In this document: positions 1 to 50,062 of the stretch, piece by piece
How the letters are laid out: every line of letters starts with the position of its first letter
How positions within the stretch are numbered: position 1 is the first letter of the stretch
From: an uncultured Collinsella sp.
GTDB lineage: Bacteria > Actinomycetota > Coriobacteriia > Coriobacteriales > Coriobacteriaceae
Reading direction: 5' to 3'
Length of the DNA stretch: 64,000 bases
Assembly: GCA_900540985.1 (NCBI GenBank)
Contig: UQIC01000007.1
Span: 1,773 to 65,772, forward strand
Program-made: the position numbers and the translations under genes
The notes under the pieces: generated by a model
The model's database searches: none
Seen by the model: the letters and a program-made list of their open reading frames with translations, nothing else
What the model was told of the DNA's origin: nothing

Positions 1-535
1 GATGCGGGGGCTTCTGGGCCTGGGCTTCCCGCTTAGGCGCGCCTGGTGGGCCAAGGCGCTCTGGTGCCTCGCGCTTTGCACGCTCTCGAACCTCGTGGTC
101 TTCGGCATCTACCTCGCGGGCTCGGCGTTCTCCTCGCAGGGCCTCACGGCCGCGGGCACGCTCACGATGCTCCTCTGCGCGCTCGCCAACACGGTGACCG
201 CGGCGTGGATGATCCCCGCAGGGCTCTTCCTCACGGCGCGGCTCGGCATGCTCGCGGGCATCTTCTGCCCGCTCGCCGCGCAGCTCGTGGGTGGGTTCGC
301 CTGGTCGCTGATGCCGCTGCCGCAGCTCTTTCCGCCGTCGGCGAGCATGGTCATCCCCACGAGCTTTATCCCCGTGCTGCCGAGCGGCGAGCCACTCGCC
401 GCGGACATGGCGCTCGGCGGGGCGCTCGCGGCGGACGGCATGCTCACACTGGCGGGCCTTGCGGTCTGCGCGCTCGCGTTCACCGCGCTCACGGCGGCGG
501 GCGCGGCCTGGTTCGCGCGCTCCGAGGAGAGGTGA
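1..535 (+). CDS. ABC-2 type transporter permease, 5' partial (lantibiotic/bacitracin-immunity-type permease)
   Basis: Frame-2 ORF running from the window edge. It is hydrophobic with several predicted TM helices. Its stop TGA overlaps the ATG of the next permease (TGATG). Position is upstream of a two-component system. Confidence 0.5.
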   Translation, partial: MRGLLGLGFPLRRAWWAKALWCLALCTLSNLVVFGIYLAGSAFSSQGLTAAGTLTMLLCALANTVTAAWMIPAGLFLTARLGMLAGIFCPLAAQLVGGFAWSLMPLPQLFPPSASMVIPTSFIPVLPSGEPLAADMALGGALAADGMLTLAGLAVCALAFTALTAAGAAWFARSEER

Positions 536-1350
536 TGGCCGTGACACGACTCTCCGACCCGACGCCACGCATGACTCTCCCGCGGGCCCTGCTCTCCGAG
601 GCCCTGCGCCTGGCGCGCTCCCCGCTCACGGCGGTGCACCTCGTCTGCGGCCTGGCAGCCGGTCTTGCCTGCGGCGAGTACTTCTCCGTAACCCGATGGG
701 ACCCGGCGCTGGGCGCGGACGCCTACGCCCAGTTCCTCGGCGCCCTCATGCCGCTCATGTCCGCCATCGTCTGCGGGCTCGCAGTGGACGAGGAGCGCGC
801 TGCCGGGCACCTCGCCAACCTCACGGCGGTCCCCTCGCGCGGGCGCGCCGTCGCGGCGAAGTTGCTCGCCCTTGCGGCGCTCGGCGCGGGCGCGCTGGCC
901 GTGGCGCTCGGCGTGTTCGGGGCCGTGCTCGCCGTCGCCGGGCGCCTGCCGCTCGGGCCCGTTCCGCTTGCGGCCACCTGGGCGGGCATCGTGCTGGGCA
1001 GCCTGCCCCTCTACGCGCTGGGGCTCGACGTGGCCCTGCGCCTCGGCCGCAACGCCGCCATCGGCGCCGGCGCGACGGGGATGCTCCTCGCGTTCTTCTC
1101 AGTGGGCGGACTTGCGCACGGCCTCATGACCGGCGAGCTCACCGGTGCCCTGGCGACACCCCTGAGCTGGGTGCCGCTCGCCTGGCCCGCGCGCCTGGGG
1201 TCGCTCGGGGTAGAGGTCTTCATCGACGCCGCACGCGCGGCGGGCCCTCTCCTCACGACCGCGCTCGCTGGCCTCGTGCTCACCCTGGCAACCGCCGCCG
1301 TCCTTATCGCCTGGTTCTGCCGCTTCGAGGACGGGAGGGCAGATGAGTAG
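535..1350 (+). CDS. ABC-2 type transporter permease (6 predicted TM helices)
   Basis: In-frame ATG at 535, translationally coupled to the upstream permease. Protein is Ala/Leu/Gly-rich with repeated 20-aa hydrophobic segments. The first 489 nt of the 434-aa track ORF (46..534) are Arg-rich and look like a wrong-frame extension. Confidence 0.55.
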   Translation: MAVTRLSDPTPRMTLPRALLSEALRLARSPLTAVHLVCGLAAGLACGEYFSVTRWDPALGADAYAQFLGALMPLMSAIVCGLAVDEERAAGHLANLTAVPSRGRAVAAKLLALAALGAGALAVALGVFGAVLAVAGRLPLGPVPLAATWAGIVLGSLPLYALGLDVALRLGRNAAIGAGATGMLLAFFSVGGLAHGLMTGELTGALATPLSWVPLAWPARLGSLGVEVFIDAARAAGPLLTTALAGLVLTLATAAVLIAWFCRFEDGRADE

Positions 1351-1531
1351 GAAGCCGCTCGCCGCCGTGCTCGCCCTCCTCTCCGCAGCACTCGTCCTGG
1401 GCGGGAATGCCCTGCTCGACGCCGGCTGGGGGTCGGCGCTACGCTCGATCGCCGACCGCGCGCTGCCCAACCCTGAGATCACCATGTGGGCGCCCGTGCC
1501 CGCGGCTGCGCGCAGGGCTCTGGACCGCTGA
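1343..1531 (+). CDS. Small putative secreted/membrane-anchored protein (62 aa)
   Basis: GGGAGGG Shine-Dalgarno 3 nt before the ATG. N-terminus MSRKPLAAVLALLSAALVLGG resembles a signal peptide. It overlaps the permease stop by 8 nt, the last gene before the two-component system. Confidence 0.3.
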   Translation: MSRKPLAAVLALLSAALVLGGNALLDAGWGSALRSIADRALPNPEITMWAPVPAAARRALDR

Positions 1532-1576
1532 GCGCGGCGCTAGTACAATTCCGACGGGAGTTTCAGGAGGTCAAAC

Positions 1577-2239
1577 ATGGCGAGAATACTGGCAGTGGAT
1601 GATGAGCGGGCGATCCTCGACGCGCTCGCGCGCGTCCTCGGCCGCGACGGCCATGAGGTCGTCAAGGCAGCGGACCCGACGGCGGTCCCGGGGATGGACC
1701 TCTCGCGCTTCGACCTCGTGCTCTGCGACGTCATGATGCCGGGGCTCGACGGCTTCGAGCTCGTGCGGCAGATCCGCCCGGACTTCGACGGGCCCATCAT
1801 CTTCCTGACCGCGCGCGTGGCCGAGGAGGACGCCGTGGCCGGCTACGGCCTGGGCGCCGACGACTACGTCCGCAAGCCCTTCGGGGCCGCGGAGCTGCGC
1901 GCCAAGGTCGCGGCCCATCTACGCCGTGAGCGCCGGCCGCGCTCGCACGCCCTCTCCTTCGGGGAGGTGCGGATCGACCTCGGGGCGCGCGGCCTCGCCG
2001 TGGGCGGAGAGGCCGTGCCGCTCACGCCCACCGAATACGCCATCTGCGAGTACCTCGCCCGCCACCCCGGGCAGGTCATGAGCCGCGCGCAGATCCGCGA
2101 GGCAGTGCTCGGCTGGGAGAGCGACGCCGACGACGCGGCCATATCCATGCAGGTCAGCCGCGCCCGGAGAAAACTCTCCGAGGCCGGCGCCGATCCGATC
2201 GCGACCGTCTGGGGGATGGGATACAAATGGCAGCTCTGA
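1577..2239 (+). CDS. OmpR-family response regulator (REC + winged-helix)
   Basis: GGAGG RBS. Receiver motifs DDE...D...MPGLDGFEL...K and a C-terminal winged-helix trans_reg_C-like segment. Confidence 0.9.
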   Translation: MARILAVDDERAILDALARVLGRDGHEVVKAADPTAVPGMDLSRFDLVLCDVMMPGLDGFELVRQIRPDFDGPIIFLTARVAEEDAVAGYGLGADDYVRKPFGAAELRAKVAAHLRRERRPRSHALSFGEVRIDLGARGLAVGGEAVPLTPTEYAICEYLARHPGQVMSRAQIREAVLGWESDADDAAISMQVSRARRKLSEAGADPIATVWGMGYKWQL

Positions 2240-3663
2240 GGACCGGGGCGCGAGGTCGCGGGGGCATGCCGCTCTCCTTCGTCATCGCGCGCTACTTCGC
2301 CTACGCGTTCGCGGCGGTCGCCACGGCGTGGCTCGCATCGTTCATGGCGCTCTCCGCGGCGATCAACGCGGGCTTCGTCTACGAGGCAAGCTGGGGGCCG
2401 GCCAATGCGCGCGAGGTCGCGGAGGGTCTGGCACGCGACGGCGTCTGCGGGCAGCAGGACGTGCCGACGGCGTACCGCTACCTCATCCTGAATAAGGACG
2501 GATACGTGCTGATGACAGACCTCGAGGGCACGCGGCTCAAGGACGCGACGGAAATGGCCCGTGCGGCACTCGCCGCGAATCCGGGCACAGTGGAGATCGA
2601 GGGCGGGGGCTCGGGCCTCACCTACGCCGCGTTCCCGCTCAAGGGCGGCGGGGCCTGCGCACTCGTCAGCGAGTACCTGCCGCAGTGGGTCTCGCGCGAC
2701 CTCGCCGGCCTGCTTCCCAACCCGCAGAATCTCATGCTCGTCGGCGCCGCTGCGGGAAGCGCGCTCGTGCTCGCGCTCGTGGCGCGCCGCGCGAGCCGCG
2801 TGATCTCGCGCAAGATGGCGCCGCTCGCGGAGGCGGCGGGGCGCGTCGGCGCGGGGGAGCTCGACTTCGCGGTCGGCAGCACCAACGTGCGCGAGGTGAA
2901 CGACGTCCTCGCCGCGATGGACGCCATGCGGACCTCCCTCGCCGAGTCGCTCGAGGCCCGCTGGGCCGCGGAGCGGGGGCAACGCGAGCAGGTGGCGTCG
3001 CTCGCCCACGACCTCAAGACGCCGCTCACCGTGCTGCGCGCCAACGCCGACTTCGTGGCGGAGGAGCTGGAAGACGAGAAAGACGCCGACCTCGCGGCCG
3101 CCGCGCGCGACATAGCCGGCAGTGTCGAAAGGCTCGACGGCTACGTGCGCCTGCTCATCGATGCCTCGCGCGGGTCCGACGGGGCGGAGAGGGCCCCCAT
3201 GCGGCCGGCCGAGCTCTGCGAGCAGGTCCTCGCCGAGGCCGCCCAGATCGCCCGGGCGCGAGGCGTGACACTCGACGCGGCCACGGGCCCCGCTGTCGCG
3301 GGCGCGCCCGAGGCCCCGCTCGACCGAACCGCCCTGGCGCGGGCCGCCGCGAACCTCGTGGCCAACGCCGCCGAGCACGCGCGCTCGCGCGTGGCGGTCT
3401 CCTGCGACGTCGCGGACGGGCACCTCGTCATCGAGGTGTCCGACGACGGACCGGGCTTCTCTCCCGCCGCCCTCGAACGCGGCTGCGAGCGCCTCTTCAC
3501 AGACGACTCCTCCCGCTCCTCGCGCGACGGAGGCCGCCACTACGGGCTCGGCCTCCACGCCGCCTCCGAGGCCGCAAGCGCCCACGGGGGCTCCGTCTCG
3601 CTCGCCAACAGCCCCTCGGGCGGCGCGGTGGCCACCATCGCGGTCCCCCTGTGCGGGGCCTGA
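2227..3663 (+). CDS. Sensor histidine kinase
   Basis: N-terminal TM helices. H-box LAHDLKTPLTVL and an HATPase_c G-box HYGLGLH...GGSVSL. Overlaps the response-regulator stop by 13 nt. An alternative start is the Met at 2266. Confidence 0.85.
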   Translation: MAALRTGARGRGGMPLSFVIARYFAYAFAAVATAWLASFMALSAAINAGFVYEASWGPANAREVAEGLARDGVCGQQDVPTAYRYLILNKDGYVLMTDLEGTRLKDATEMARAALAANPGTVEIEGGGSGLTYAAFPLKGGGACALVSEYLPQWVSRDLAGLLPNPQNLMLVGAAAGSALVLALVARRASRVISRKMAPLAEAAGRVGAGELDFAVGSTNVREVNDVLAAMDAMRTSLAESLEARWAAERGQREQVASLAHDLKTPLTVLRANADFVAEELEDEKDADLAAAARDIAGSVERLDGYVRLLIDASRGSDGAERAPMRPAELCEQVLAEAAQIARARGVTLDAATGPAVAGAPEAPLDRTALARAAANLVANAAEHARSRVAVSCDVADGHLVIEVSDDGPGFSPAALERGCERLFTDDSSRSSRDGGRHYGLGLHAASEAASAHGGSVSLANSPSGGAVATIAVPLCGA

Positions 3664-3861
3664 CGACTCAGGCCCTCACAACGGCGTGGCTCGCAATCAA
3701 ACGCTTCCCGGATAATAATACCCGTTGCAGGGATCGCCCTGGCTAGTCGCCATCTCGTCCGCCGCTGGAATGAATCCTTACTCCCATTCCTCCGAATACC
3801 GCCCCATGCCTTGTCATCTTGAAACACGGGGAGTAAATGGCGAAATCGCAGATGAAAGGGA

Positions 3862-3912
3862 ATAAAAAGGCAAAGAAAAAGCCTCCATTCCAACATGGGA
3901 ACGGAGGCTCGA
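3862..3912 (-). terminator. Rho-independent terminator downstream of guaA
   Basis: Hairpin GCCTCCATTCC/GGAACGGAGGC with a T-run on the minus strand. Confidence 0.4.
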
Positions 3913-4023
3913 TAATTGAGTTTACTCACCAATGTCGCTGGCGGCTTTGCCGTGACTCTCGTACGAAACAAAACTCAGCGTCACAGTGCGGCACTCAAAA
4001 ATGCAGGTCAAAACCCTGTCGGC

Positions 4024-41346: not shown

Positions 41347-41584
41347 CTTTTAATACCTTTCTATAGATATAAATATCTTAATAATAGTAATAGCACTGAC
41401 GAAACTGTTGATTACTCCCAAAGACGCAGGTCAGACCCAGAAAGAGAATCGACAGCAACCTGTGTGCAACAGGGGTGGTTTTCCACGTTCAAAACCTGCG
41501 CAAAACTTTTCATCACCGCGGGTTGGGTTTTAGACACCTTATGCCCGTGGTTTCGACAAGTTTTCAACAGGTGTCTCTATTTCC
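41347..41584. promoter_or_regulatory. oriC segment (dnaA-dnaN spacer): AT-rich DUE plus DnaA-box-like 9-mers
   Basis: 41347-41400 is about 20% GC (TTTAATACCTTTCTATAGATATAAATATCTTAATAATAGTAATAG). Box-like sites are TTTTCCACG at 41479, TTTCGACAA at 41551 and TTTTCAACA at 41561. Confidence 0.5.
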
Positions 41585-43309
41585 CTACGAGCGCAGTGTA
41601 ATTTTATCGCGCAGCGACTTAAGGTCTTCGGTGACGGTGCGGTCTTCCTGGATCATCTTCTGGACTTTTTTGTAACTCGTGCTGACGGTCGAGTGGTTGC
41701 GGTTGCCAAATTCGGCGCCCACCGCCGTGGTCGTCATCTCGCACATCTCGATGGCCAGGTAGATAGCGATATGGCGTGCTTTGGCGATATTGGCGTTGCG
41801 ACGCGGGCCGATGAGCTCCTCGTGCGTCACGCCGTACTGCTCTTCGATGACGGACTGAACCGTTTGCACGTTGATCTTTTTGGCCGATGTGTCGAAGTAC
41901 TGGCTGGCGATGGCGTCGATATCGTCAAAGGTGAGCTCCCCGCCCTCGCGTTCGCGGTCGCCCGCCTCGCCGGCGCAGCGCTCGCAGAAGCTCTCGAGTT
42001 CGCGGATGTTGGTGCCCGACACCTCTGCCATGTGCTTAAAGTGCTCATCGGTCAGGTGCCCGCCGTCGCCCCCGTAGGCCGCCAGCAGTGAGTCGTCGCC
42101 TGCCTCGGGAGCGGCGACGATGGTGTTCTCGTAATAGCGCTGCAAGATCTTGTATTTCATCTCGTAGCTGGGCTCTGCGACCAGGCAGAGCATGCCGGCG
42201 TTGAAGCGGCTGGTCAGACGCTCGTCCATGCTCAGGTCCTTGGGGGCGCGGTCTGCCGCGATGACGACCTTCTTGTTGTTGCGGATGAACTCGTCCATGA
42301 GCTGGAAAAAGTAGTCCACGCTCGCGCGCTTGCCGATGATGTTTTGGATGTCATCGATGATGAGCACGTCCACGCCGTGGTACGCCTGCATGATGGGGGC
42401 GTTGCTCTTCTTTTGACGGTCGAACTCGGTCATCAGGTCGTCCAGATATGCCTGGGAGTTGGCATACTTGACCTTGATCTCGGGCGACTTCTCGGCGAGC
42501 TCGTTTTTGATGGCAAGCAGCAGGTGCGTCTTGCCCAGGCCCGATTTGCCGTAGATGAAAAGTGATGTGCATGTGCCGCGCTCGTCCGCGAGGGCGGCAA
42601 ACTTGAGTGCCGAGCGATAGGCATGGCTGTTCTCGGGGCCGTAGACAAAGTTCTCAAAGGTAAATTTTGAGTTCGCGGCGAGCGGGGCTCCATCCGTATT
42701 CTGCTCGGCCGGCACGGTCGGTGCTGGCATGGGTGAAGCGGGGGTCGCAGCTTGCGTGGATTTAGTCGGCGCTCCGCCCTTCATCTGGTTCATCATGCGG
42801 CGAAAATCGTCGGCTGAGAGCGTGTTCTTGATTGCAATGCCCGAATCCGCGCCCGCCGCTGCGTCGTGAGCGATGGGCATGTGCGTGACGGGTGCGTTCG
42901 TTGACGTCGCTACCGCGGTCGGCAACGGCGCCATGGTTTCACGGGAAACATCGCTGTGCTGGTGCTCGATTGTCGGCACGTCGCTTGCGGAGGCTGGTAC
43001 CGTCGGGGAAGCAGCGGGAGCCGTGGCGGGCGCCGTCGCGGCAGCGGATTCCGTCGCGGCGCCTTGCGGCGCCACGATGTCGAGCGCAATCGGTGCAAAG
43101 GCGATTTCTTCCAGATAAGCCTCAATAGTCGGCTGATGCTTTTTGAGCTGCGCGATGGCAAAGCGCGAGGGGGCCTCGATCGTGAGCGTATCTTCGGTCA
43201 GGCTTATGGCCCGCGATTGCCCCAGCATGTTGATGAGGCGTGCATCTTGGCCGTCGCGCTGGCAAAAGGCGATGGCATCCCCCAGGATGATGCTTGCTTC
43301 CTCGTCCAC
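41585..43309 (-). CDS. dnaA: Chromosomal replication initiator DnaA
   Basis: AAA+ Walker A GKSGLGKTHLL, sensor motifs and a C-terminal domain IV HTH ...HSTVSTSYKKV.... A long Ala/Pro/Thr-rich linker sits after domain I. Confidence 0.95.
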   Translation of the reverse strand: MDEEASIILGDAIAFCQRDGQDARLINMLGQSRAISLTEDTLTIEAPSRFAIAQLKKHQPTIEAYLEEIAFAPIALDIVAPQGAATESAAATAPATAPAASPTVPASASDVPTIEHQHSDVSRETMAPLPTAVATSTNAPVTHMPIAHDAAAGADSGIAIKNTLSADDFRRMMNQMKGGAPTKSTQAATPASPMPAPTVPAEQNTDGAPLAANSKFTFENFVYGPENSHAYRSALKFAALADERGTCTSLFIYGKSGLGKTHLLLAIKNELAEKSPEIKVKYANSQAYLDDLMTEFDRQKKSNAPIMQAYHGVDVLIIDDIQNIIGKRASVDYFFQLMDEFIRNNKKVVIAADRAPKDLSMDERLTSRFNAGMLCLVAEPSYEMKYKILQRYYENTIVAAPEAGDDSLLAAYGGDGGHLTDEHFKHMAEVSGTNIRELESFCERCAGEAGDREREGGELTFDDIDAIASQYFDTSAKKINVQTVQSVIEEQYGVTHEELIGPRRNANIAKARHIAIYLAIEMCEMTTTAVGAEFGNRNHSTVSTSYKKVQKMIQEDRTVTEDLKSLRDKITLRS

Positions 43310-43324
43310 TGTCTCTCCCGTTCT

Positions 43325-44677
43325 TTAGCTCTGAGCTCGCACGCGAGCGGCGCCGAGTTCGGTCAGATGGTATTTCTGGCCATGCTTGATGACCAAGCCG
43401 GCCTGCGCCAAGTCATTGAGCGTGCGTGACCAAGTGGGGGCCGAGTTTCCAAACGCCCTCGCCAGATCGGTTGCACCGCACGCTTGATTTTGCGCTAGAT
43501 AGCCCAGCGCGGCGTTGCCGCGATCGCTTACGAACACGTCCGGTTGTGGCTGCGCATACTGATTTGCTGCATTAGGATACATCATTTGAGCTGCTGGTTG
43601 TTGAGAACTCTGCATCGGCGGCATTTGCTGTTGAAAACTTTGAGGCCACTGTTGGTAAGGCTGCGGAGGCATCTGCTGGGCCCAAGGGTTGTACTGCTGC
43701 TGCGGCATCTGCTGGTACGGCTGCTGATATCCCTGCTGGTACTGCTGCGGGAACTGCTGGCCATACCCCAGTGGCGGCATCTGCTGATATGGATATCCCT
43801 GTTGGTACGGCTGATAGCCCATTTGCTGGCCACCCGGTGCGCCCGTCGCCTGCTGCATTGCTGCTGCATCCTGATCCGCCAGCGGCACGGCCTCTGGCAT
43901 GTTTGGCGGCATCGACATCGATGTCGCCTGGGGCTCTTGTGTGGGAAGCATTCCGGGCTGCTGCATCTGCCTCACGGGGGGCTGCATCTGCTGCGTTGCC
44001 ATGGGCTGCTGCGCAAAAGCTCCCGGCAGGGGATATGTGGGCTGCTCCGTCTCGGGCCGCACGGCAGCATCGCGTCCGCCGGCACGCTCGATTTCCTGCA
44101 CTCGTTTAGGGTTCAGGCTTACCGTAACCACGGTGCCGTTGCCCATGTTGTCCTCGATGGATACGGCACCGCCGGCGTTTTCCAAATACTCCTGCACCAT
44201 GGGAAACCCTGCTCCGGTTCCACGGATATAGCGCTTCATCTTGCTGTTTGCGCTGGTAACGCCAAAGTCGAAAGCGCGTTCCTTGTCGTCGATGCCGGGT
44301 CCTTGATCAGCAAAGCGGATGGTGTCTCCGCCGTCCAGAATCGAGATGATGGGCTCGGCAAAGTGCGCGTGGATAAAGTTTTCGACAATCTCGCGGATGA
44401 CCATGAGCGAGATGTGGCCACCTTGTTCTTTCATGCACTGGTAGACGGTGTTGGTCGTCTCTTCCAAATACGTGCGGACATCTTGCGGATCAATGACGAT
44501 CACACGCGGTGTCGACAGCATGTCGTCATAGACGGCGATACGCGCGGCGTACATGGCTTTTGGCGCCTGCGTGGTCGTCTGCTCGCCTTCCGCACGCTCT
44601 TCGCGCACGCCGGTGATGTGCTCGTTGTCGGGTGCCGGGTCTCCAGAATCGACCATGGTGTAAAAGTCATCAGACAT
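43325..44677 (-). CDS. GHKL (HATPase_c-like) ATPase domain + Q/Y/P-rich low-complexity region + C-terminal winged-helix HTH protein
   Basis: N-box REIVENFIHAH. G1 box DQGPGID. G2 box GTGAGF. About 170 aa enriched in Q, P, Y and M. C-terminal MarR-like segment LGYLAQNQACGATDLARAFGNSAPTWSRTLNDLAQAGLVIKHGQKYHLTELG. Ends 16 nt before the dnaA start. Confidence 0.7.
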   Translation of the reverse strand: MSDDFYTMVDSGDPAPDNEHITGVREERAEGEQTTTQAPKAMYAARIAVYDDMLSTPRVIVIDPQDVRTYLEETTNTVYQCMKEQGGHISLMVIREIVENFIHAHFAEPIISILDGGDTIRFADQGPGIDDKERAFDFGVTSANSKMKRYIRGTGAGFPMVQEYLENAGGAVSIEDNMGNGTVVTVSLNPKRVQEIERAGGRDAAVRPETEQPTYPLPGAFAQQPMATQQMQPPVRQMQQPGMLPTQEPQATSMSMPPNMPEAVPLADQDAAAMQQATGAPGGQQMGYQPYQQGYPYQQMPPLGYGQQFPQQYQQGYQQPYQQMPQQQYNPWAQQMPPQPYQQWPQSFQQQMPPMQSSQQPAAQMMYPNAANQYAQPQPDVFVSDRGNAALGYLAQNQACGATDLARAFGNSAPTWSRTLNDLAQAGLVIKHGQKYHLTELGAARVRAQS

Positions 44678-44920
44678 GCCGCTCGCAATCTTTCAAAAGG
44701 TTTCGAACAAATAGTAGCTCACCGCGCAATGTTTCTCATCTTTCGACAACTTTTCAAAACCTGTTGAAAACTTTGGAAAACGGGCGAAAAGTTCTCAACA
44801 TTGCCAACATGACCTGTTGAAAACTCGATGAAATATCGTGAAAAGTTGTCATGCACCGCTAAATCGAGCTTGGCTTATGGGGGAACCGTGTGAACTGCGC
44901 AACCTTTTACCTTTGATTTC
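44678..44920. promoter_or_regulatory. DnaA-box-like repeat cluster (candidate primary oriC / inc region)
   Basis: At least 8 copies of TTTTCAACA / TTTCGACAA / TTTCGAACA-like 9-mers in both orientations. These include two exact CCTGTTGAAAAC 12-mers at 44760 and 44812. Genes diverge from this point. Confidence 0.45.
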
Positions 44921-44950
44921 TTGACATTTGAACATTGATTTCCCTACAAT
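44921..44950 (+). promoter_or_regulatory. Sigma70-type promoter of rpmH operon (TTGACA-18-TACAAT)
   Basis: Consensus -35 and -10 hexamers about 70 nt upstream of rpmH. Confidence 0.45.
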
Positions 44951-45022
44951 CTTCAAGCTCACGTGTCTATATCTGCGTCCGCGTCCCCGCGGACACTCGA
45001 AATGCAGCAGGAGGAACTTAAG

Positions 45023-45157
45023 ATGAAGCGTACGTATCAGCCTAATAAGCGTAAGCGTGCCAAGACCCATGGCTTCCGTGCCCGTATGGCCACTAAGGGT
45101 GGTCGTGCCGTGCTCGCTCGTCGTCGCGCCAAGGGCCGCAAGCGTCTCACTGTCTAG
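45023..45157 (+). CDS. rpmH: 50S ribosomal protein L34
   Basis: [54 protein letters not shown]. Confidence 0.9.
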
Positions 45158-45177
45158 CAGCGATACACACATCTCGC

Positions 45178-45516
45178 ATGAAGACTATTAAGTCTCGGCA
45201 AGATTTCGAGCATGTGTTCAGTCAGGGGCGTCGTTTTAATCACCCTCTGATTCGAATGACCATATGTGAATCGGTTGGCGAAGGCGACTCCGGAAGGGTC
45301 GCCTTCGTTGGTGCTAAACGGCTCGGTTGCGCTGTCGTGCGCAACCGTTCTAAGCGTGTGATGCGCGAGGCCGCCCGCAGCTGCGGATTTCCCGTTGCGG
45401 GTTATGACATCATCTTGTTCGCAACTCCCAAGACGAGGGTTTCCTCGCCGCAGGAGATGGACAAGGCATTGCGTTTGCTTATGAAACGCGCCGGCGTTGC
45501 CGGGGAGGAGCGATGA
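45178..45516 (+). CDS. rnpA: RNase P protein component
   Basis: RnpA motif ...RNRSKRVMREAAR.... Follows rpmH. Confidence 0.9.
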   Translation: MKTIKSRQDFEHVFSQGRRFNHPLIRMTICESVGEGDSGRVAFVGAKRLGCAVVRNRSKRVMREAARSCGFPVAGYDIILFATPKTRVSSPQEMDKALRLLMKRAGVAGEER

Positions 45517-45766: not shown

Positions 45767-46537
45767 ATGTGGGATTGGATCGTTAACATCCTTTTCGAGC
45801 TGCTCAAGCTCATCCAGACCTTTGCGGTCGACTGGGGCCTGTCCATCATCATCCTGGTGGTCATCATCCGTCTGCTGCTGACGCCGCTTATGCTCAAATC
45901 GACCAAGTCGACGGCTCGCATGCAGGTGCTGCAGCCCAAGATGCTCGAGATCCAGGAGCGCTATGCCGACGATCCCCAGCGTCAGGCCGAGGAGATGCAG
46001 AAGTTCTACAGCGAGAACAAGTTCAACCCGATGGCTGGTTGTTTGCCGCTGTTGATCCAGATGCCTGTCCTGTTCGCCCTGTTTACGTTGCTGCGCAACT
46101 TGCCGCAGTACTTTAACGACGGCACGTTCTCGTTCTTCAACATCCTGCCCGACCTGACCACCACGCCGAGCGCTTCCTTTGCCGATGGCTTTATGGTTGC
46201 GCTGCCTGCGCTGGTCTGCCTGATTCTGTTCGCCGTCCTGACCCTGATTCCGCAGCTCTATATGTCGCGCAACCAGACCGGCCAGCAGGCTCAGAGCATG
46301 CGTATGATGGCTGTTGTCATGACGGTCATGATGCTCTGGATGGGCTGGAGCCTTCCCGTTGGTGTTCTGCTGTACTACGACGTCTCGTCTGCTTGGCAGG
46401 TTATCCAGCAGATTTTTGTGACGCAGAAGGTTATCGAGAAGGCCAAGGCCGATGAGGAGGAGCGTCTTAAGAACGCGCCGCTGCAGGTTGAGGTCACTCG
46501 TCGAGAGAAGAAGCCGCGCCCGCACAAGAAGAAGTAG
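45767..46537 (+). CDS. yidC: Membrane protein insertase YidC (short Gram-positive type)
   Basis: Five TM helices with the conserved RLLLTPL...Q.P...L motif. RBS GGAGG. Confidence 0.9.
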   Translation: MWDWIVNILFELLKLIQTFAVDWGLSIIILVVIIRLLLTPLMLKSTKSTARMQVLQPKMLEIQERYADDPQRQAEEMQKFYSENKFNPMAGCLPLLIQMPVLFALFTLLRNLPQYFNDGTFSFFNILPDLTTTPSASFADGFMVALPALVCLILFAVLTLIPQLYMSRNQTGQQAQSMRMMAVVMTVMMLWMGWSLPVGVLLYYDVSSAWQVIQQIFVTQKVIEKAKADEEERLKNAPLQVEVTRREKKPRPHKKK

Positions 46538-46554
46538 TGGGATATCAATCTTAT

Positions 46555-46566
46555 TTAGGTACCTAA
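46555..46566. repeat. 12-bp palindrome TTAGGTACCTAA (copy 1)
   Basis: Identical copy at 50059. Each is followed by C and lies within 20 nt after a stop codon. Confidence 0.5.
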
Positions 46567-46581
46567 CTTTTGGAGTACGTT

Positions 46582-47151
46582 ATGTCTGAAGAGATCATCG
46601 AGGATATGCTTGAGGAGGTTGCCCCGCAGGTCGCGGGCGATTATCCCGAGATTGCACAGCGCTACAAGGCTGGTGAAGAGCTGACCGATGAGGAGCTCGA
46701 CACCATTGCCGATGTTGCGATTTCCATCCTGCGTTCCATCCTTTCGCACTTCGATGCCGCCAACTCTCCTATCGATGAGTATGAGGGTGACGAGGGTGAG
46801 CTGATTCTGGATGTAACGGCTCCCGATCTTGCTGTTCTCATTGGCCGTCATGGTCGCACCCTTGATGCCCTTCAGGTTATGTTCTCTTTGCTGGTGAGCC
46901 GCAAGCTTGGCTTTAGGTATCCGGTTGTAGTGGACGTCGAGGGATACAAGAGCCGCCGTCAGGACAAGGTTGCCTCCATGGCTCAGTCTGCTGCCGAGCG
47001 CGCCATCCGCACTCACAAGAGTGTTTCGCTTCCGCCCATGAATGCCTACGAGCGTCGACTGGTTCACATTGCACTTCGTGGCAATGATGCGGTCGATACT
47101 CATTCTGAGGGTTCTGACCCTGATCGCCATGTAGTGATTGTTGCTCGATAA
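46582..47151 (+). CDS. jag: Jag/KhpB RNA-binding protein (KH + R3H domains)
   Basis: C-terminal R3H ...YERRLVHIALRG.... Located downstream of yidC. Confidence 0.85.
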   Translation: MSEEIIEDMLEEVAPQVAGDYPEIAQRYKAGEELTDEELDTIADVAISILRSILSHFDAANSPIDEYEGDEGELILDVTAPDLAVLIGRHGRTLDALQVMFSLLVSRKLGFRYPVVVDVEGYKSRRQDKVASMAQSAAERAIRTHKSVSLPPMNAYERRLVHIALRGNDAVDTHSEGSDPDRHVVIVAR

Positions 47152-47180
47152 TCTACTCGAGCTTATGCTAAGGGGACGTG

Positions 47181-47212
47181 GTTTCCACGTCCCCTTTTTT
47201 TGTCAAAAGTTC
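47181..47212 (+). terminator. Rho-independent terminator after jag
   Basis: AGGGGACGTGG...CCACGTCCCCT followed by T7. Confidence 0.65.
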
Positions 47213-47247
47213 TCGATACACTGATTTTTGTCAGAAAGGAGCTTTCG

Positions 47248-47985
47248 TTGTTAGTACTTACTGATCAGCAGGCTGACGAGATGTTGTGTCGTCTAACTTC
47301 CTATTGCAAAGAGTATTCCTTGAGCGTAACTGATGTTGAACTGAGGAAATGTATTCAGCATTTGGATTTGGTTCTGGAAATAAATAAGACAACCAATCTC
47401 ACCCGTATTCTTAACGTAGAAGATGCTGCAGTACTTCATATCCTTGACTCACTTGTTTTGCTCCCTTATATCGATAAGGCTCCTGAGGGAGCTTTGCTCG
47501 ATATGGGAACAGGTGCGGGCTTCCCTGGTATTCCATTAACCATAACCACGCATCGTAAAGCAACTTATATTGACTCTGTTGGCAAGAAGGTTGATGCAGT
47601 CAATTCCTTTGTCCATGCTCTTGGATTGAAACATGCTCATGCGGTCCATGATCGTCTTGAAGAATATGCTCGAAGCCATAAGAAGCAGTTCTCTGTCGTA
47701 ACCGCCCGCGCACTGGCCCCTTTACCGATTCTTGTTGAGTATGCGGCGCCGTACCTCAAGGATGGAGGGCTATTTGTTATCACCAAGGGCAATCCTTCGG
47801 ATGAGGAGCTTGCTTCCGGCATGTCAGCAGCAAAGATTTGCGGCTTCACTTTGCTTCTGAATGACGCTATCGATTTGCCTGAGGGCCTGGGCCACAGGGA
47901 GTTCATTGTTCTTAAGAAGAGTCATCCAGCATCCGTTTCATTGCCTCGTGCAAATGGCATGGCCAAGAAGAATCCGCTTGCCTAG
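47248..47985 (+). CDS. rsmG: 16S rRNA (guanine527-N7)-methyltransferase RsmG (GidB)
   Basis: SAM motif LDMGTGAGFPGIPL. TTG start 6 nt after AAGGAG. The track ORF starts 48 nt earlier at an ATG without an RBS. GC content is about 43-45%. Confidence 0.8.
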   Translation: MLVLTDQQADEMLCRLTSYCKEYSLSVTDVELRKCIQHLDLVLEINKTTNLTRILNVEDAAVLHILDSLVLLPYIDKAPEGALLDMGTGAGFPGIPLTITTHRKATYIDSVGKKVDAVNSFVHALGLKHAHAVHDRLEEYARSHKKQFSVVTARALAPLPILVEYAAPYLKDGGLFVITKGNPSDEELASGMSAAKICGFTLLLNDAIDLPEGLGHREFIVLKKSHPASVSLPRANGMAKKNPLA

Positions 47986-47986
47986 A

Positions 47987-48002
47987 TGTTTCACGTGAAA
48001 CA
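47987..48002. promoter_or_regulatory. parS site 1 (TGTTTCACGTGAAACA)
   Basis: Perfect 16-bp palindrome matching the ParB-binding parS consensus. Confidence 0.8.
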
Positions 48003-48025
48003 TAATGGATACTAACAACTTGCAG

Positions 48026-48041
48026 TGTTTCACGTGAAACA
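48026..48041. promoter_or_regulatory. parS site 2 (TGTTTCACGTGAAACA)
   Basis: Identical perfect palindrome. Confidence 0.8.
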
Positions 48042-48064
48042 TGGCGGTTGATATCGAATCGGAA

Positions 48065-48080
48065 TGTTTCACGTGAAACA
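48065..48080. promoter_or_regulatory. parS site 3 (TGTTTCACGTGAAACA)
   Basis: Identical perfect palindrome, 40 nt upstream of parA. Confidence 0.8.
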
Positions 48081-48119
48081 TCCTCCGTTTGATAGCTTTA
48101 ATACACACCAGGAGGGACC

Positions 48120-48920
48120 GTGGGATTTCGCGACGTTAAGCGTTCTAAGAGCGCAAAAGACACGCGTATTATTGCAATCATCAATCAAAAAGGCGGCGTC
48201 GGTAAGTCAACGACGGCTGTAAACCTTGCAGCAGCACTGGGTGAGCAGGGTCGTAAGACGCTGATTGTCGATTTTGATCCGCAAGGAAACAGCACTAGCG
48301 GATTTGGAATTGAAAAAGAAGACCTTGACTACTGCATTTATGATGCATTGTTGAACGATGTGCCGGCAGAATCACTTGTTCTTGATACAAATTGTAAAAA
48401 GGTATTCGTTATTCCGGCTACAATTCAGCTTGCAGGCGCGGAAATTGAGCTCGTAAGCGCAATCGCTCGTGAAACCCGCCTCAAAGATTTGCTTGAGCCG
48501 ATTCAGGACGAGTTCGATTTTATTTTCATTGACTGTCCCCCCTCGCTCGGCCTGCTTACTATCAACGCCTTGACCGCAGCAGACAGCGTTTTGATTCCGA
48601 TCCAATGCGAGTATTATGCACTCGAGGGCGTTACGAAGCTGCTTGAGTCAATGAAGATGGTCAAATCACGTCTGAACAAGGGCTTAGACACCTATGGTGT
48701 GCTTATGACCATGTATGACTCGCGTACTTCTCTATCGAATCAGGTTGTTGAGGAGGTTCAATCGTACTTTGGTGATAAGGCGTTTAAGACGCTGATCCCC
48801 CGTACGGTTAAAATCTCCGAAGCTCCGTCTTTTGGAGAACCGGTAATTACCTATGCACCTCAAAATAAGGGTGCAAAAGCGTATATGAACCTTGCAAAAG
48901 AGGTGATCAAGCGTGCCTAG
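48120..48920 (+). CDS. parA: Chromosome partitioning ATPase ParA/Soj
   Basis: Deviant Walker A KGGVGKST. GTG start after AGGAGG. Confidence 0.9.
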   Translation: MGFRDVKRSKSAKDTRIIAIINQKGGVGKSTTAVNLAAALGEQGRKTLIVDFDPQGNSTSGFGIEKEDLDYCIYDALLNDVPAESLVLDTNCKKVFVIPATIQLAGAEIELVSAIARETRLKDLLEPIQDEFDFIFIDCPPSLGLLTINALTAADSVLIPIQCEYYALEGVTKLLESMKMVKSRLNKGLDTYGVLMTMYDSRTSLSNQVVEEVQSYFGDKAFKTLIPRTVKISEAPSFGEPVITYAPQNKGAKAYMNLAKEVIKRA

Positions 48921-49818
48921 TGTAAAGAAACGTGGCGGATTGGGACGTGGACTCAATGCTTTGGTCTCAGAGGCCGAGTATGAGACCGGTGGTTCGACTA
49001 CATCGGCTGCAACTACTTCATCTGAAATAAAACTACCTATTGAGGATATCGTTCCCAACCCTAATCAGCCGCGAATTCACTTTAACGAAACTGAACTTCG
49101 TGAGCTGAGCGAGTCAATCCAAGAACATGGCGTTTTGCAGCCGCTATTGGTTCGCAAGCATGGAAACGGCTATGAGATCATTGCCGGTGAGCGTCGTTAC
49201 CAGGCGTCAAAACTTGCTGGTCTTGAGGAACTGCCTGTCATCATTAAAGATGTTAATGATGAAGAGATGCTAGCTCTTGCTCTTATCGAAAACCTTCAGC
49301 GTTCTGATCTAAATCCCGTCGAAGAGGCTAAGGGCTACCGCCAGCTTATCGATGCCAGCGGTATGACCCAGGAGGCATTGTCGAAGGCGGTAAGCAAGTC
49401 ACGTTCTGCAATTACAAACTCGCTGCGTCTTCTTGACCTCCCCGAAGTCGTGCAGCAGATGATTTTTGAGGGCAAACTTACTGCTGGTCATGCACGTGCG
49501 ATTCTTGCAGTTCCCTATGAGGATGCTCGAATTCGACTTGCTGAGAAGGTTGTTGCTGAGGGCCTTTCCGTAAGAGCGACAGAAAATCTTGCTCCGTTGT
49601 TTTCTGCCGGAGAGACACCTAAAACTCCGAGGCCTGCAACGCCCCAGTCTTTTAAAAAGGCTGCCCGCGTGCTTCGTCAGGTTTTTAATACCAACGTGCG
49701 TGTGAAGAGCTCGCGTGGAAAAAATAAGATTGAGATTGAGTTTAAAGACGAGGAAGAGCTCTCTCGTATTCTTGGCGAAATGATTCAGTTTGATCAAGGA
49801 GACCAAGATGAGGAATAG
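48913..49818 (+). CDS. parB: Chromosome partitioning protein ParB/Spo0J
   Basis: ParB box GERRYQA, HTH and CTP-binding region GLGRGL. Overlaps parA by 8 nt. Confidence 0.9.
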   Translation: MPSVKKRGGLGRGLNALVSEAEYETGGSTTSAATTSSEIKLPIEDIVPNPNQPRIHFNETELRELSESIQEHGVLQPLLVRKHGNGYEIIAGERRYQASKLAGLEELPVIIKDVNDEEMLALALIENLQRSDLNPVEEAKGYRQLIDASGMTQEALSKAVSKSRSAITNSLRLLDLPEVVQQMIFEGKLTAGHARAILAVPYEDARIRLAEKVVAEGLSVRATENLAPLFSAGETPKTPRPATPQSFKKAARVLRQVFNTNVRVKSSRGKNKIEIEFKDEEELSRILGEMIQFDQGDQDEE

Positions 49819-50062
49819 GATTTTAACTGCGATTGCATTGGCGACGACTCTCGCGGCTGGCGCCTTTGCTGGCTTTAAGATCGCGACAGACGATGATCTT
49901 CGAGGTCGTTTGCTTCGTGGTGCGCAAGATATCGTCGATACATCCAAGAAGAAAATGGATGTTATGACAGAAGATGTTGCCATGCGCACTGCTCAGGTAA
50001 CGAAGAATCCCAAGATCAATCAAGGTTGGGTTAGCAACCAATGGGAAAATGTAGGCTATTAG
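49808..50062 (+). CDS. Small hypothetical protein (84 aa) with N-terminal hydrophobic segment
   Basis: AAGGAG RBS. Overlaps the parB stop by 11 nt. Lies in the same low-GC block. Confidence 0.35.
   Translation: MRNRILTAIALATTLAAGAFAGFKIATDDDLRGRLLRGAQDIVDTSKKKMDVMTEDVAMRTAQVTKNPKINQGWVSNQWENVGY

Follow-up and report, generated by a model that had tools for sequence, protein, structure and literature searches.

A GHKL ATPase-like winged-helix protein paired with dnaA inside the apparent replication origin of the Coriobacteriia

The dnaA gene and the replication origin are among the most studied bacterial loci, and lineage-specific initiation factors, such as DciA, SirA and HobA, keep emerging. 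In Bacillus subtilis, dnaA alone lies between the two halves of oriC. Proteins that join a GHKL-like domain to a winged helix also exist, and an uncharacterized protein of Corynebacterium diphtheriae, DIP2311 (PDB 3LMM), which we take to be made of AlbA_2, HATPase_c_4 and a winged helix, is the closest solved fold to the protein described here, at a sequence identity of 13-14%. The latter is encoded by an open reading frame at positions 43325-44677 on the minus strand of a 64,000-nucleotide stretch of DNA from an uncultured Collinsella sp. (contig UQIC01000007.1; the whole stretch is referred to as the window), and is given the working name X throughout. We found that X, whose domains are individually already known, forms with dnaA an ancient, class-wide two-gene unit of the Coriobacteriia and not a local insertion, and that the two genes are flanked by what look like the two halves of a bipartite oriC.

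Linkage of X to dnaA and the layout of the origin

An initial annotation of the window, made from the sequence alone, had described X as inserted between dnaA and its upstream DnaA boxes, a wording that proved misleading, since the X-dnaA pair is found across the class. To score the linkage, 172 loci were pooled from genome, metagenome and contig look-ups and analyzed by tblastn. In all 154 loci in which both genes were detectable, dnaA came next after X on the same strand, orthologues thus lying directly 5' of dnaA in every lineage examined, and dnaA was present in each of the 146 loci whose sequence continues for over 2.5 kb past X. These 154 loci make up 30 clusters at ~80% identity, the most distant sharing 33% identity with the protein of the window. 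Among the contigs of six divergent members, dnaA was found immediately 3' of X in all five that could be scored (P0220, P0270, P0235, P0265 and P0206, the last reaching the DnaA N-terminal domain only), and in the sixth (P0269) a downstream fragment matched DnaA_N below the cut-off, which is only suggestive. The gap between the two genes measured 0-230 nt in 29 of the 30 clusters, the exception being 378 nt at locus L169, and as little as 0-20 nt in several Coriobacteriales-type lineages; the gaps checked contain neither a convincing promoter nor a convincing terminator. In the window, the TAA stop codon of X (43327-43325) is followed closely by the GTG start codon of dnaA (43309-43307), and the spacer between them (43310-43324) was scanned and contains no promoter-like or terminator-like site. 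X most likely leads the dnaA operon, the two genes presumably being co-transcribed from the box-rich spacer upstream of X.

The pair was found in two arrangements. In 123 loci the order is rnpA<-rpmH<-|X->dnaA->dnaN, and in 22 loci, belonging to about 10 Eggerthellales-like clusters, the pair is inverted with respect to rpmH and dnaN (dnaN<-|X->dnaA->rpmH->rnpA). The inverted loci keep both the box-rich region 5' of X and an AT-rich TTATTATTAC...TTAGATATAT element 3' of dnaA, and because both flanking elements stay with X and dnaA through the inversion, the module is a conserved unit, consisting of a box cluster, X, dnaA, and then boxes, DnaA-trio-like repeats and AT-rich DNA. The inverted module was observed at loci L106, L110, L112-L115, L125, L140-L143, L146, L150, L151, L158, L164, L166, L167 and L171.

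The DnaA-box cluster that the initial annotation had placed upstream of X is real, with exact copies of TTTTCAACA far above expectation: this 9-mer occurs four times in the 64 kb compared to 0.28 expected (41561-41569, 43629-43637, 44762-44770 and 44815-44823), and, with one mismatch allowed, 18 times compared to 6.9 expected, nine of the 18 being located inside 41507-44823. The spacer between rpmH and X, which also holds TTTTCCAAA and TTGTCGAAA variants, probably serves both as the origin's left half and as the promoter region of the X-dnaA operon. Beyond the window, the box words TTTTCCAC and TTTTCAAC were each found 5' of X in 24 of 27 representatives, in both arrangements, and their 7-mer fragments TTTTCCA, TTTCCAC and TTTCAAC were 11-15 fold enriched there compared to the rest of the loci.

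The other half of the origin, where unwinding probably takes place, is the dnaA-dnaN spacer. It carries five DnaA-trio-like trinucleotides (5'-TAA TAA TAG TAA TAG-3', plus strand, 41379-41393) and, just ahead of dnaN, an AT-rich stretch (41351-41393; 85% AT over 40 nt). In the basal unwinding system, boxes are followed by DnaA-trios with the consensus 3'-GAT-5' and then by AT-rich DNA (PMC6669920), and the repeats of the window match both this consensus and this layout. An AT-rich element with trinucleotide periodicity (e.g., TTATTATTACAACTATTAAAACCTTAGATATAT) is conserved 3' of dnaA in both arrangements. A TAA/TAG-repeat AT-rich element 3' of dnaA was also observed at L093, L105, L110, L112 and L114, and it stays where rpmH follows dnaA.

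Two further observations concern box-like words. The 11-mer GTTTTCAACAG inside X, which encodes ..SFQQQ.., may act as a DnaA box within the gene or may simply result from the CAA/CAG-rich coding; it is kept in Collinsella loci, a retention that says little because these loci are closely related. A second repeated word, TTGTCGAAA/TTGTTCGAAA, stands beside box-like sequences in both spacers (44737-44745, 44703-44712 and 41545-41553; in the contexts TGAAAAGTTGTCGAAAG upstream and TGAAAACTTGTCGAAAC downstream), and may be a divergent DnaA box or the site of another protein, such as X.

Domain architecture and spread of the X family

X is a two-domain protein, whose ends fold confidently on either side of a disordered linker. 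The initial annotation had recognized a GHKL/Bergerat-fold ATPase with N, G1 and G2 boxes, and all of this was borne out: the Pfam model HATPase_c matches residues 93-189 with 42.4 bits (cut-off, 26.4 bits), and an AlphaFold model built on 40 homologues gives residues 40-200 a pLDDT of ~85-95, in agreement with a second model covering residues 1-215. Ahead of the N-box helix the model has two strands and one helix, and not a helical hairpin, and the fold stops at residue ~200, where disorder begins. In full-length alignments of 32-49 diverse members (33-98% identical), the conserved elements of this domain are the ARIAVYDD..PRV strands, motif I (R95-E96-x-V-E99-N100-x-x-H103-A104), G1 (D124-Q-G-P-G128, then I), G2 (G153-x-G155-x-G157-x-P159) and a subsequent G181-T..T185. 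Residues E99, N100, H103, D124, G126, G128, G153, G155, G157, G181 and T185 are invariant and E96 is kept in at least 90% of the sequences. The nucleotide site therefore looks intact, and its invariant residues point to a working site. A short aromatic motif precedes this domain. In Coriobacteriales it is located at the extreme N-terminus and reads FYTMV in the window and FYPFV in other members (F5 and Y6 being invariant in alignment A3), and in Eggerthellales it reads F[DN][YF][ST][FHY]V and directly precedes ARIA[LV]YDD.

At the C-terminus, a winged helix is modeled confidently (residues 380-450, pLDDT ~93). The MarR-like winged helix of the initial annotation thus stood as a fold; the winged-helix Pfam models that match residues 385-444 (HVO_A0261_N, 31.8 bits; MarR_2; HTH_IclR) are all below their cut-offs. 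T415 and R418 in the recognition helix and K431 and K435 in the wing are invariant within the 40-sequence alignment A3, and G401, K435, L438 and G442 are kept in at least 90% of the 32-sequence diverse alignment A1, the wing carrying K431, K435, L438 and G442. No curated family claims X, in keeping with the initial annotation, which could not assign it to a described family. For X, the Pfam searches returned no family besides HATPase_c and generic, sub-threshold winged-helix models, and NCBIfam returned nothing beyond kinase fragments far below threshold.

The linker between the two domains has a pLDDT below 50 over residues 201-378, as expected of the Q/P-rich disordered segment first described. 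In the window protein, its 179 residues comprise 28% Q, 18% P, 11% A, 9% M and 7% Y, and only 10 of them are charged. Its coding DNA shows a weak 12/24-nt periodicity (64-76% matches) made of imperfect repeats without any homopolymer, and the identical 450-aa protein was found in at least five independent assemblies and 79 Collinsella loci, including several genome contigs of the Collinsella aerofaciens group, from which the window derives. Since the same protein recurs in independent assemblies, the linker is a genuine sequence, and a homopolymer-driven assembly artefact, which had been raised as a concern, is excluded. Across the family, the length of the linker ranges from ~20 aa (in proteins of ~260 aa) to ~360 aa, with many members having 20-50 aa, and in the longest proteins examined (517-708 aa) the extra length comes from longer linkers or N-terminal extensions, additional Pfam domains being absent. 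The prion-like linker is thus a lineage-specific expansion, neither family-defining nor central. The condensate-prone linker of the initial annotation is not conserved, and with such a range of lengths the family as a whole cannot work chiefly by phase separation.

To delimit the family, we ran an exhaustive HMMER search over 1.84 billion cluster representatives (50% identity clusters), and retrieved 819 clusters at E <=1e-3 and 264 at E <=1e-30, which sets the family well apart from the very large histidine-kinase population. All homologues bearing an organism name belong to the class Coriobacteriia, the named sources being Collinsella, Olsenella, Tractidigestivibacter, Atopobiaceae, Coriobacteriales, Gordonibacter, Rubneribacter, Raoultibacter and Eggerthellaceae. 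This taxonomic breadth comes from the profile searches and a metagenome scan, the scan of genome contigs being saturated with near-identical Collinsella 'species'. One locus labeled 'Oscillospiraceae bacterium' (L016, CAVEDI010000055.1) holds an X 99% identical to that of Collinsella at the same locus, and is probably a binning contaminant of a metagenome-assembled genome. Source annotations of X are generic, namely 'ATP-binding protein', 'MarR family transcriptional regulator' and, at JGI, 'anti-sigma regulatory factor (Ser/Thr protein kinase)', and literature searches on Coriobacteriia origins and dnaA and on GHKL plus winged-helix proteins found no publication on the family. In the searched literature, neither the X family nor its restriction to Coriobacteriia appears to be described, and the same is true of its obligatory association with dnaA within the origin.

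The features of the locus are listed in Table 1. On the far side of dnaA lie dnaN and recF, with gyrB further along, and divergently from X the plus strand carries, from 44963, rpmH, rnpA, yidD, yidC, jag and rsmG. Between recF and gyrB a DciA/DUF721-like gene (weak PF05258 match) was observed at 11535-12098 of L001/L002, with its window equivalent downstream of recF; the order recF, DciA/DUF721-like, gyrB also occurs in other Actinobacteria. DnaA is unusually long in these organisms, having 574 aa in the window and 656-658 aa in relatives (L085, 6345-8321; L086, 6501-8471), and its domain II is of A/P/T/S-rich low complexity, so that expanded disordered segments occur in both proteins of the operon. 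The GC fraction of the window is 0.70-0.73 in positions 1-4000, 0.47-0.51 in 46001-50000 and ~0.55-0.65 elsewhere. A plasmid or other mobile origin of the locus was considered and dropped, megablast of 41585-45200 against plasmids having given nothing.

Table 1. Coordinates of the features of the X-dnaA locus in the window
Feature	Position	Strand	Description
dnaA-dnaN spacer	41347..41584		DnaA boxes at 41561-41569 (exact) and 41507-41515 (one mismatch); trio-like repeats; AT-rich stretch
dnaA	41585..43309	-	574 aa, GTG start; Bac_DnaA 143 bits, Bac_DnaA_C 74 bits; long A/P/T-rich domain II
X-dnaA spacer	43310..43324	-	15 nt; GGGAGAG ribosome-binding site at 43319-43313
X open reading frame	43325..44677	-	450 aa + stop, ATG start; leads the conserved X-dnaA pair
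C-terminal winged helix-turn-helix (residues 379-450)	43328..43543	-	Recognition helix at ~413-425
Disordered linker (residues 201-378)	43544..44077	-	pLDDT <50; rich in Q/P/A/M/Y/G
Internal box 11-mer GTTTTCAACAG	43628..43638	-	Exact, in linker-coding DNA; identical to the 11-mer of three intergenic boxes
GHKL/Bergerat ATP-binding domain (residues ~40-200)	44078..44560	-	HATPase_c, model, conserved motifs
N-terminal aromatic motif FYTMV (residues 5-9)	44651..44665	-	Alignments; low confidence in the model
rpmH-X spacer with DnaA-box cluster	44678..44962		Exact TTTTCAACA at 44762-44770 and 44815-44823 (-); one mismatch at 44751-44759 and 44792-44800 (+)
Promoter-like site facing rpmH	44921..44950	+	TTGACA-18-TACAAT, 11/12

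Possible functions of X

Judging by its sequence, domains and position, we favor with moderate confidence the reading that X is a DNA-binding regulator of the one-component type, which responds to ATP and acts on the dnaA operon, the origin, or both. Nucleotide binding to the GHKL domain, probably together with dimerization, would control binding of the winged helix at the operon promoter or the origin, and this binding would tune DnaA synthesis, origin firing, or both; X would be made in step with DnaA, such that the two proteins would be held at a set ratio. We infer alike the binding of DNA by X, the control of this binding by nucleotide, the ATP-dependent dimerization and the target. Several points weigh against this regulator reading. 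The role in initiation or in dnaA transcription is inferred from gene linkage, and conserved operon linkage to dnaA is also true of non-initiation genes, so that linkage alone cannot define the target. Analysis of k-mer enrichment 5' of X yielded no conserved operator-like motif beyond the DnaA boxes, the AT bias of intergenic DNA being a confounder; the words TTATTCA and GAATTCA are enriched there and uninterpretable, as DnaA-box words and general AT-richness dominate. Moreover, X has neither a transducer domain, without which GHL ATPases do not hydrolyze ATP, nor a visible dimerization module, which leaves ATP-driven dimerization as an analogy. A bolder proposal, which we consider possible though doubtful, is that X is an unrecognized lineage-specific initiation component of the Coriobacteriia, a second ATP switch at oriC, whose ATP-bound GHKL dimers, tethered by the winged helix, would bridge the box clusters or act on DnaA; X would then be required for firing or would gate it, and the linker would set its local concentration at the origin.

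X might instead be a kinase or partner-switching factor of the SpoIIAB/RsbW or PDK/BCKDK type, which would phosphorylate or sequester another protein (DnaA, through its domain I/II, or a sigma factor being examples), with the winged helix serving only to localize it. When the GHKL domain was compared with known folds, the scores were 10.7 for BCKD kinase, 9.4 for PDK2, 9.1 for SpoIIAB and 7.2-7.6 for MutL, MLH1 and Topo II; the CA domains of histidine kinases and 3LMM score as well as these kinases or better. HATPase_c_2 gave no match for X at E <=1 and is not among the 25 commonest families listed of the 53 matched by 49 members (E <=0.1), no STAS anti-anti-sigma, sigma-factor or phosphatase gene was found in any neighborhood examined, and the known anti-sigma kinases have no DNA-binding domain, and so we regard a kinase as unlikely. 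The same verdict applies to an architectural origin protein, part of the initiation machinery and not a transcription factor, in which ATP-driven GHKL dimers would bridge winged-helix-bound DNA at both box clusters and loop out the operon, and long linkers would help to concentrate X at oriC. X has no transducer domain, the family is structurally nearer to kinase-type CA domains than to GHL clamps, many linkers are of 20-50 aa, so that condensation is not general, and binding sites for X were not identified.

A further possibility is that X regulates the transcription of unrelated genes in the ordinary way, its adjacency to dnaA being historical and without functional meaning. This would fit the generic annotations (at NCBI sometimes 'MarR family transcriptional regulator') and the sub-threshold similarity of its winged helix to MarR/IclR/ArsR models. 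We consider it quite improbable, since a linkage kept class-wide down to 33% identity, through inversion and, in many lineages, at a spacing of 0-20 nt would hardly have persisted without selection, and since X consists, on its DNA-binding side, of a ~70-aa winged helix without the dimerization helices of MarR. Lastly, X or its Q-rich middle might not be real: it could stem from faulty assembly or annotation, from a decayed histidine kinase or from an antisense reading frame. The low-complexity, CAG/CAA-rich coding DNA would invite this suspicion, as would a 407-aa open reading frame on the opposite strand (43544-44767, plus strand), which we regard as spurious, its sole support being stop-free, GC-rich, repeat-like DNA. 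The identical protein in many independent assemblies, the 264 clusters of homologues, the invariant catalytic motifs, the confident folding of both ends and the imperfect, homopolymer-free repeats make it extremely improbable, and we take the artefact and antisense explanations to be refuted by the family size, the independent assemblies and the confident model.

Returning to X as a regulator, its invariable class-wide pairing with dnaA, kept through inversion of the module, points strongly, on genomic grounds, to a new regulator or cofactor, and makes X a good candidate regulator of replication initiation specific to this lineage. Among the Coriobacteriia are genera abundant in the human gut, such as Collinsella, Eggerthella and Gordonibacter, and literature searches found no paper on replication control in the gut genera of this class. 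The GHKL pocket, furthermore, belongs to a class of sites targeted by known inhibitors. Should the function of X turn out to be ordinary transcriptional autoregulation, the origin architecture of the class would still be defined, and a family now called 'ATP-binding protein' would have a name.

Comparison with known systems

When X was searched against PDB sequences, the catalytic domain of HK853 ranked first (E 1e-3), and the family profile matches KinB (E 5e-4) and, weakly, MutL over residues 16-77 (E 0.03). Compared with the CA domains of the two-component histidine kinases HK853, VicK/CovS, CpxA and WalK, X likewise has N, G1 and G2 boxes. Unlike histidine kinases, it has no DHp/HisKA, no phospho-acceptor His, no sensor or transmembrane part and no nearby response regulator; no HisKA-type Pfam match was found for X or among the matches listed for 49 members, and no response regulator among its neighbors (rpmH, rnpA, yidD, yidC, jag and rsmG; dnaA, dnaN, recF and gyrB). 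Its motif I also differs, having a Glu and not Asn/His four residues before the Mg-binding Asn. Such a Glu is typical of the GHKL enzymes that supply their own general base, namely ATPases and Ser kinases, and is not known from histidine kinases.

With the GHL ATPases (MutL, GyrB, Hsp90 and MORC), X shares the Glu-x3-Asn of motif I (E96...N100, with catalytic roles assigned by analogy) and the G1, G2 and GT motifs, and its motif I 'REIVENxxHA' resembles what we take to be the MutL sequence, 'KELVENSLDA'. X differs from them in having no second (transducer) domain to provide a lysine to the gamma-phosphate, and its GHKL domain is structurally nearer to the kinase-type CA domains. From the anti-sigma kinases SpoIIAB/RsbW and the mitochondrial BCKDK/PDK it differs in having a DNA-binding domain, no HATPase_c_2 match and no partner genes, and from MarR proteins in having the winged helix without the rest of the ~140-aa MarR fold. 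Lacking DHp, transducer, partner genes and the MarR fold, X falls outside all four groups: histidine kinases, GHL ATPases, anti-sigma kinases and MarR proteins.

The winged helix of X matches that of the Csa3/CasR regulators best in a PDB profile search (E 3.6e-5), and both share the logic of a small-molecule-binding domain joined to a winged helix; the sensor of Csa3/CasR is a CARF domain, unrelated to the GHKL domain, and X has no CRISPR context. A defense system was considered and set aside, PADLOC having shown only this winged-helix similarity. Compared with DIP2311, likewise without a known function, X has no AlbA_2, has a disordered linker between its domains and is tied to dnaA; neither AlbA_2 nor HATPase_c_4 gave a Pfam match for X or appears among the matches listed for 49 members, so the likeness is structural only.

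As for known regulators of initiation, Pfam, NCBIfam and PDB sequence searches showed no homology of X to YabA, SirA, Soj/ParA, DnaD, Hda, DiaA, HobA, SeqA, MtrA or AdpA. The layout of the locus finds its closest counterpart in Bacillus. As in the bipartite oriC of Bacillus subtilis (incA/B - dnaA - incC), box clusters stand on both sides of dnaA, and as in the Bacillus basal unwinding system, the downstream boxes are followed by DnaA-trio-like repeats and an AT-rich stretch before dnaN (PMC6669920). The Bacillus origin has no X homologue, whereas in the Coriobacteriia the unit between the two clusters holds both X and dnaA.

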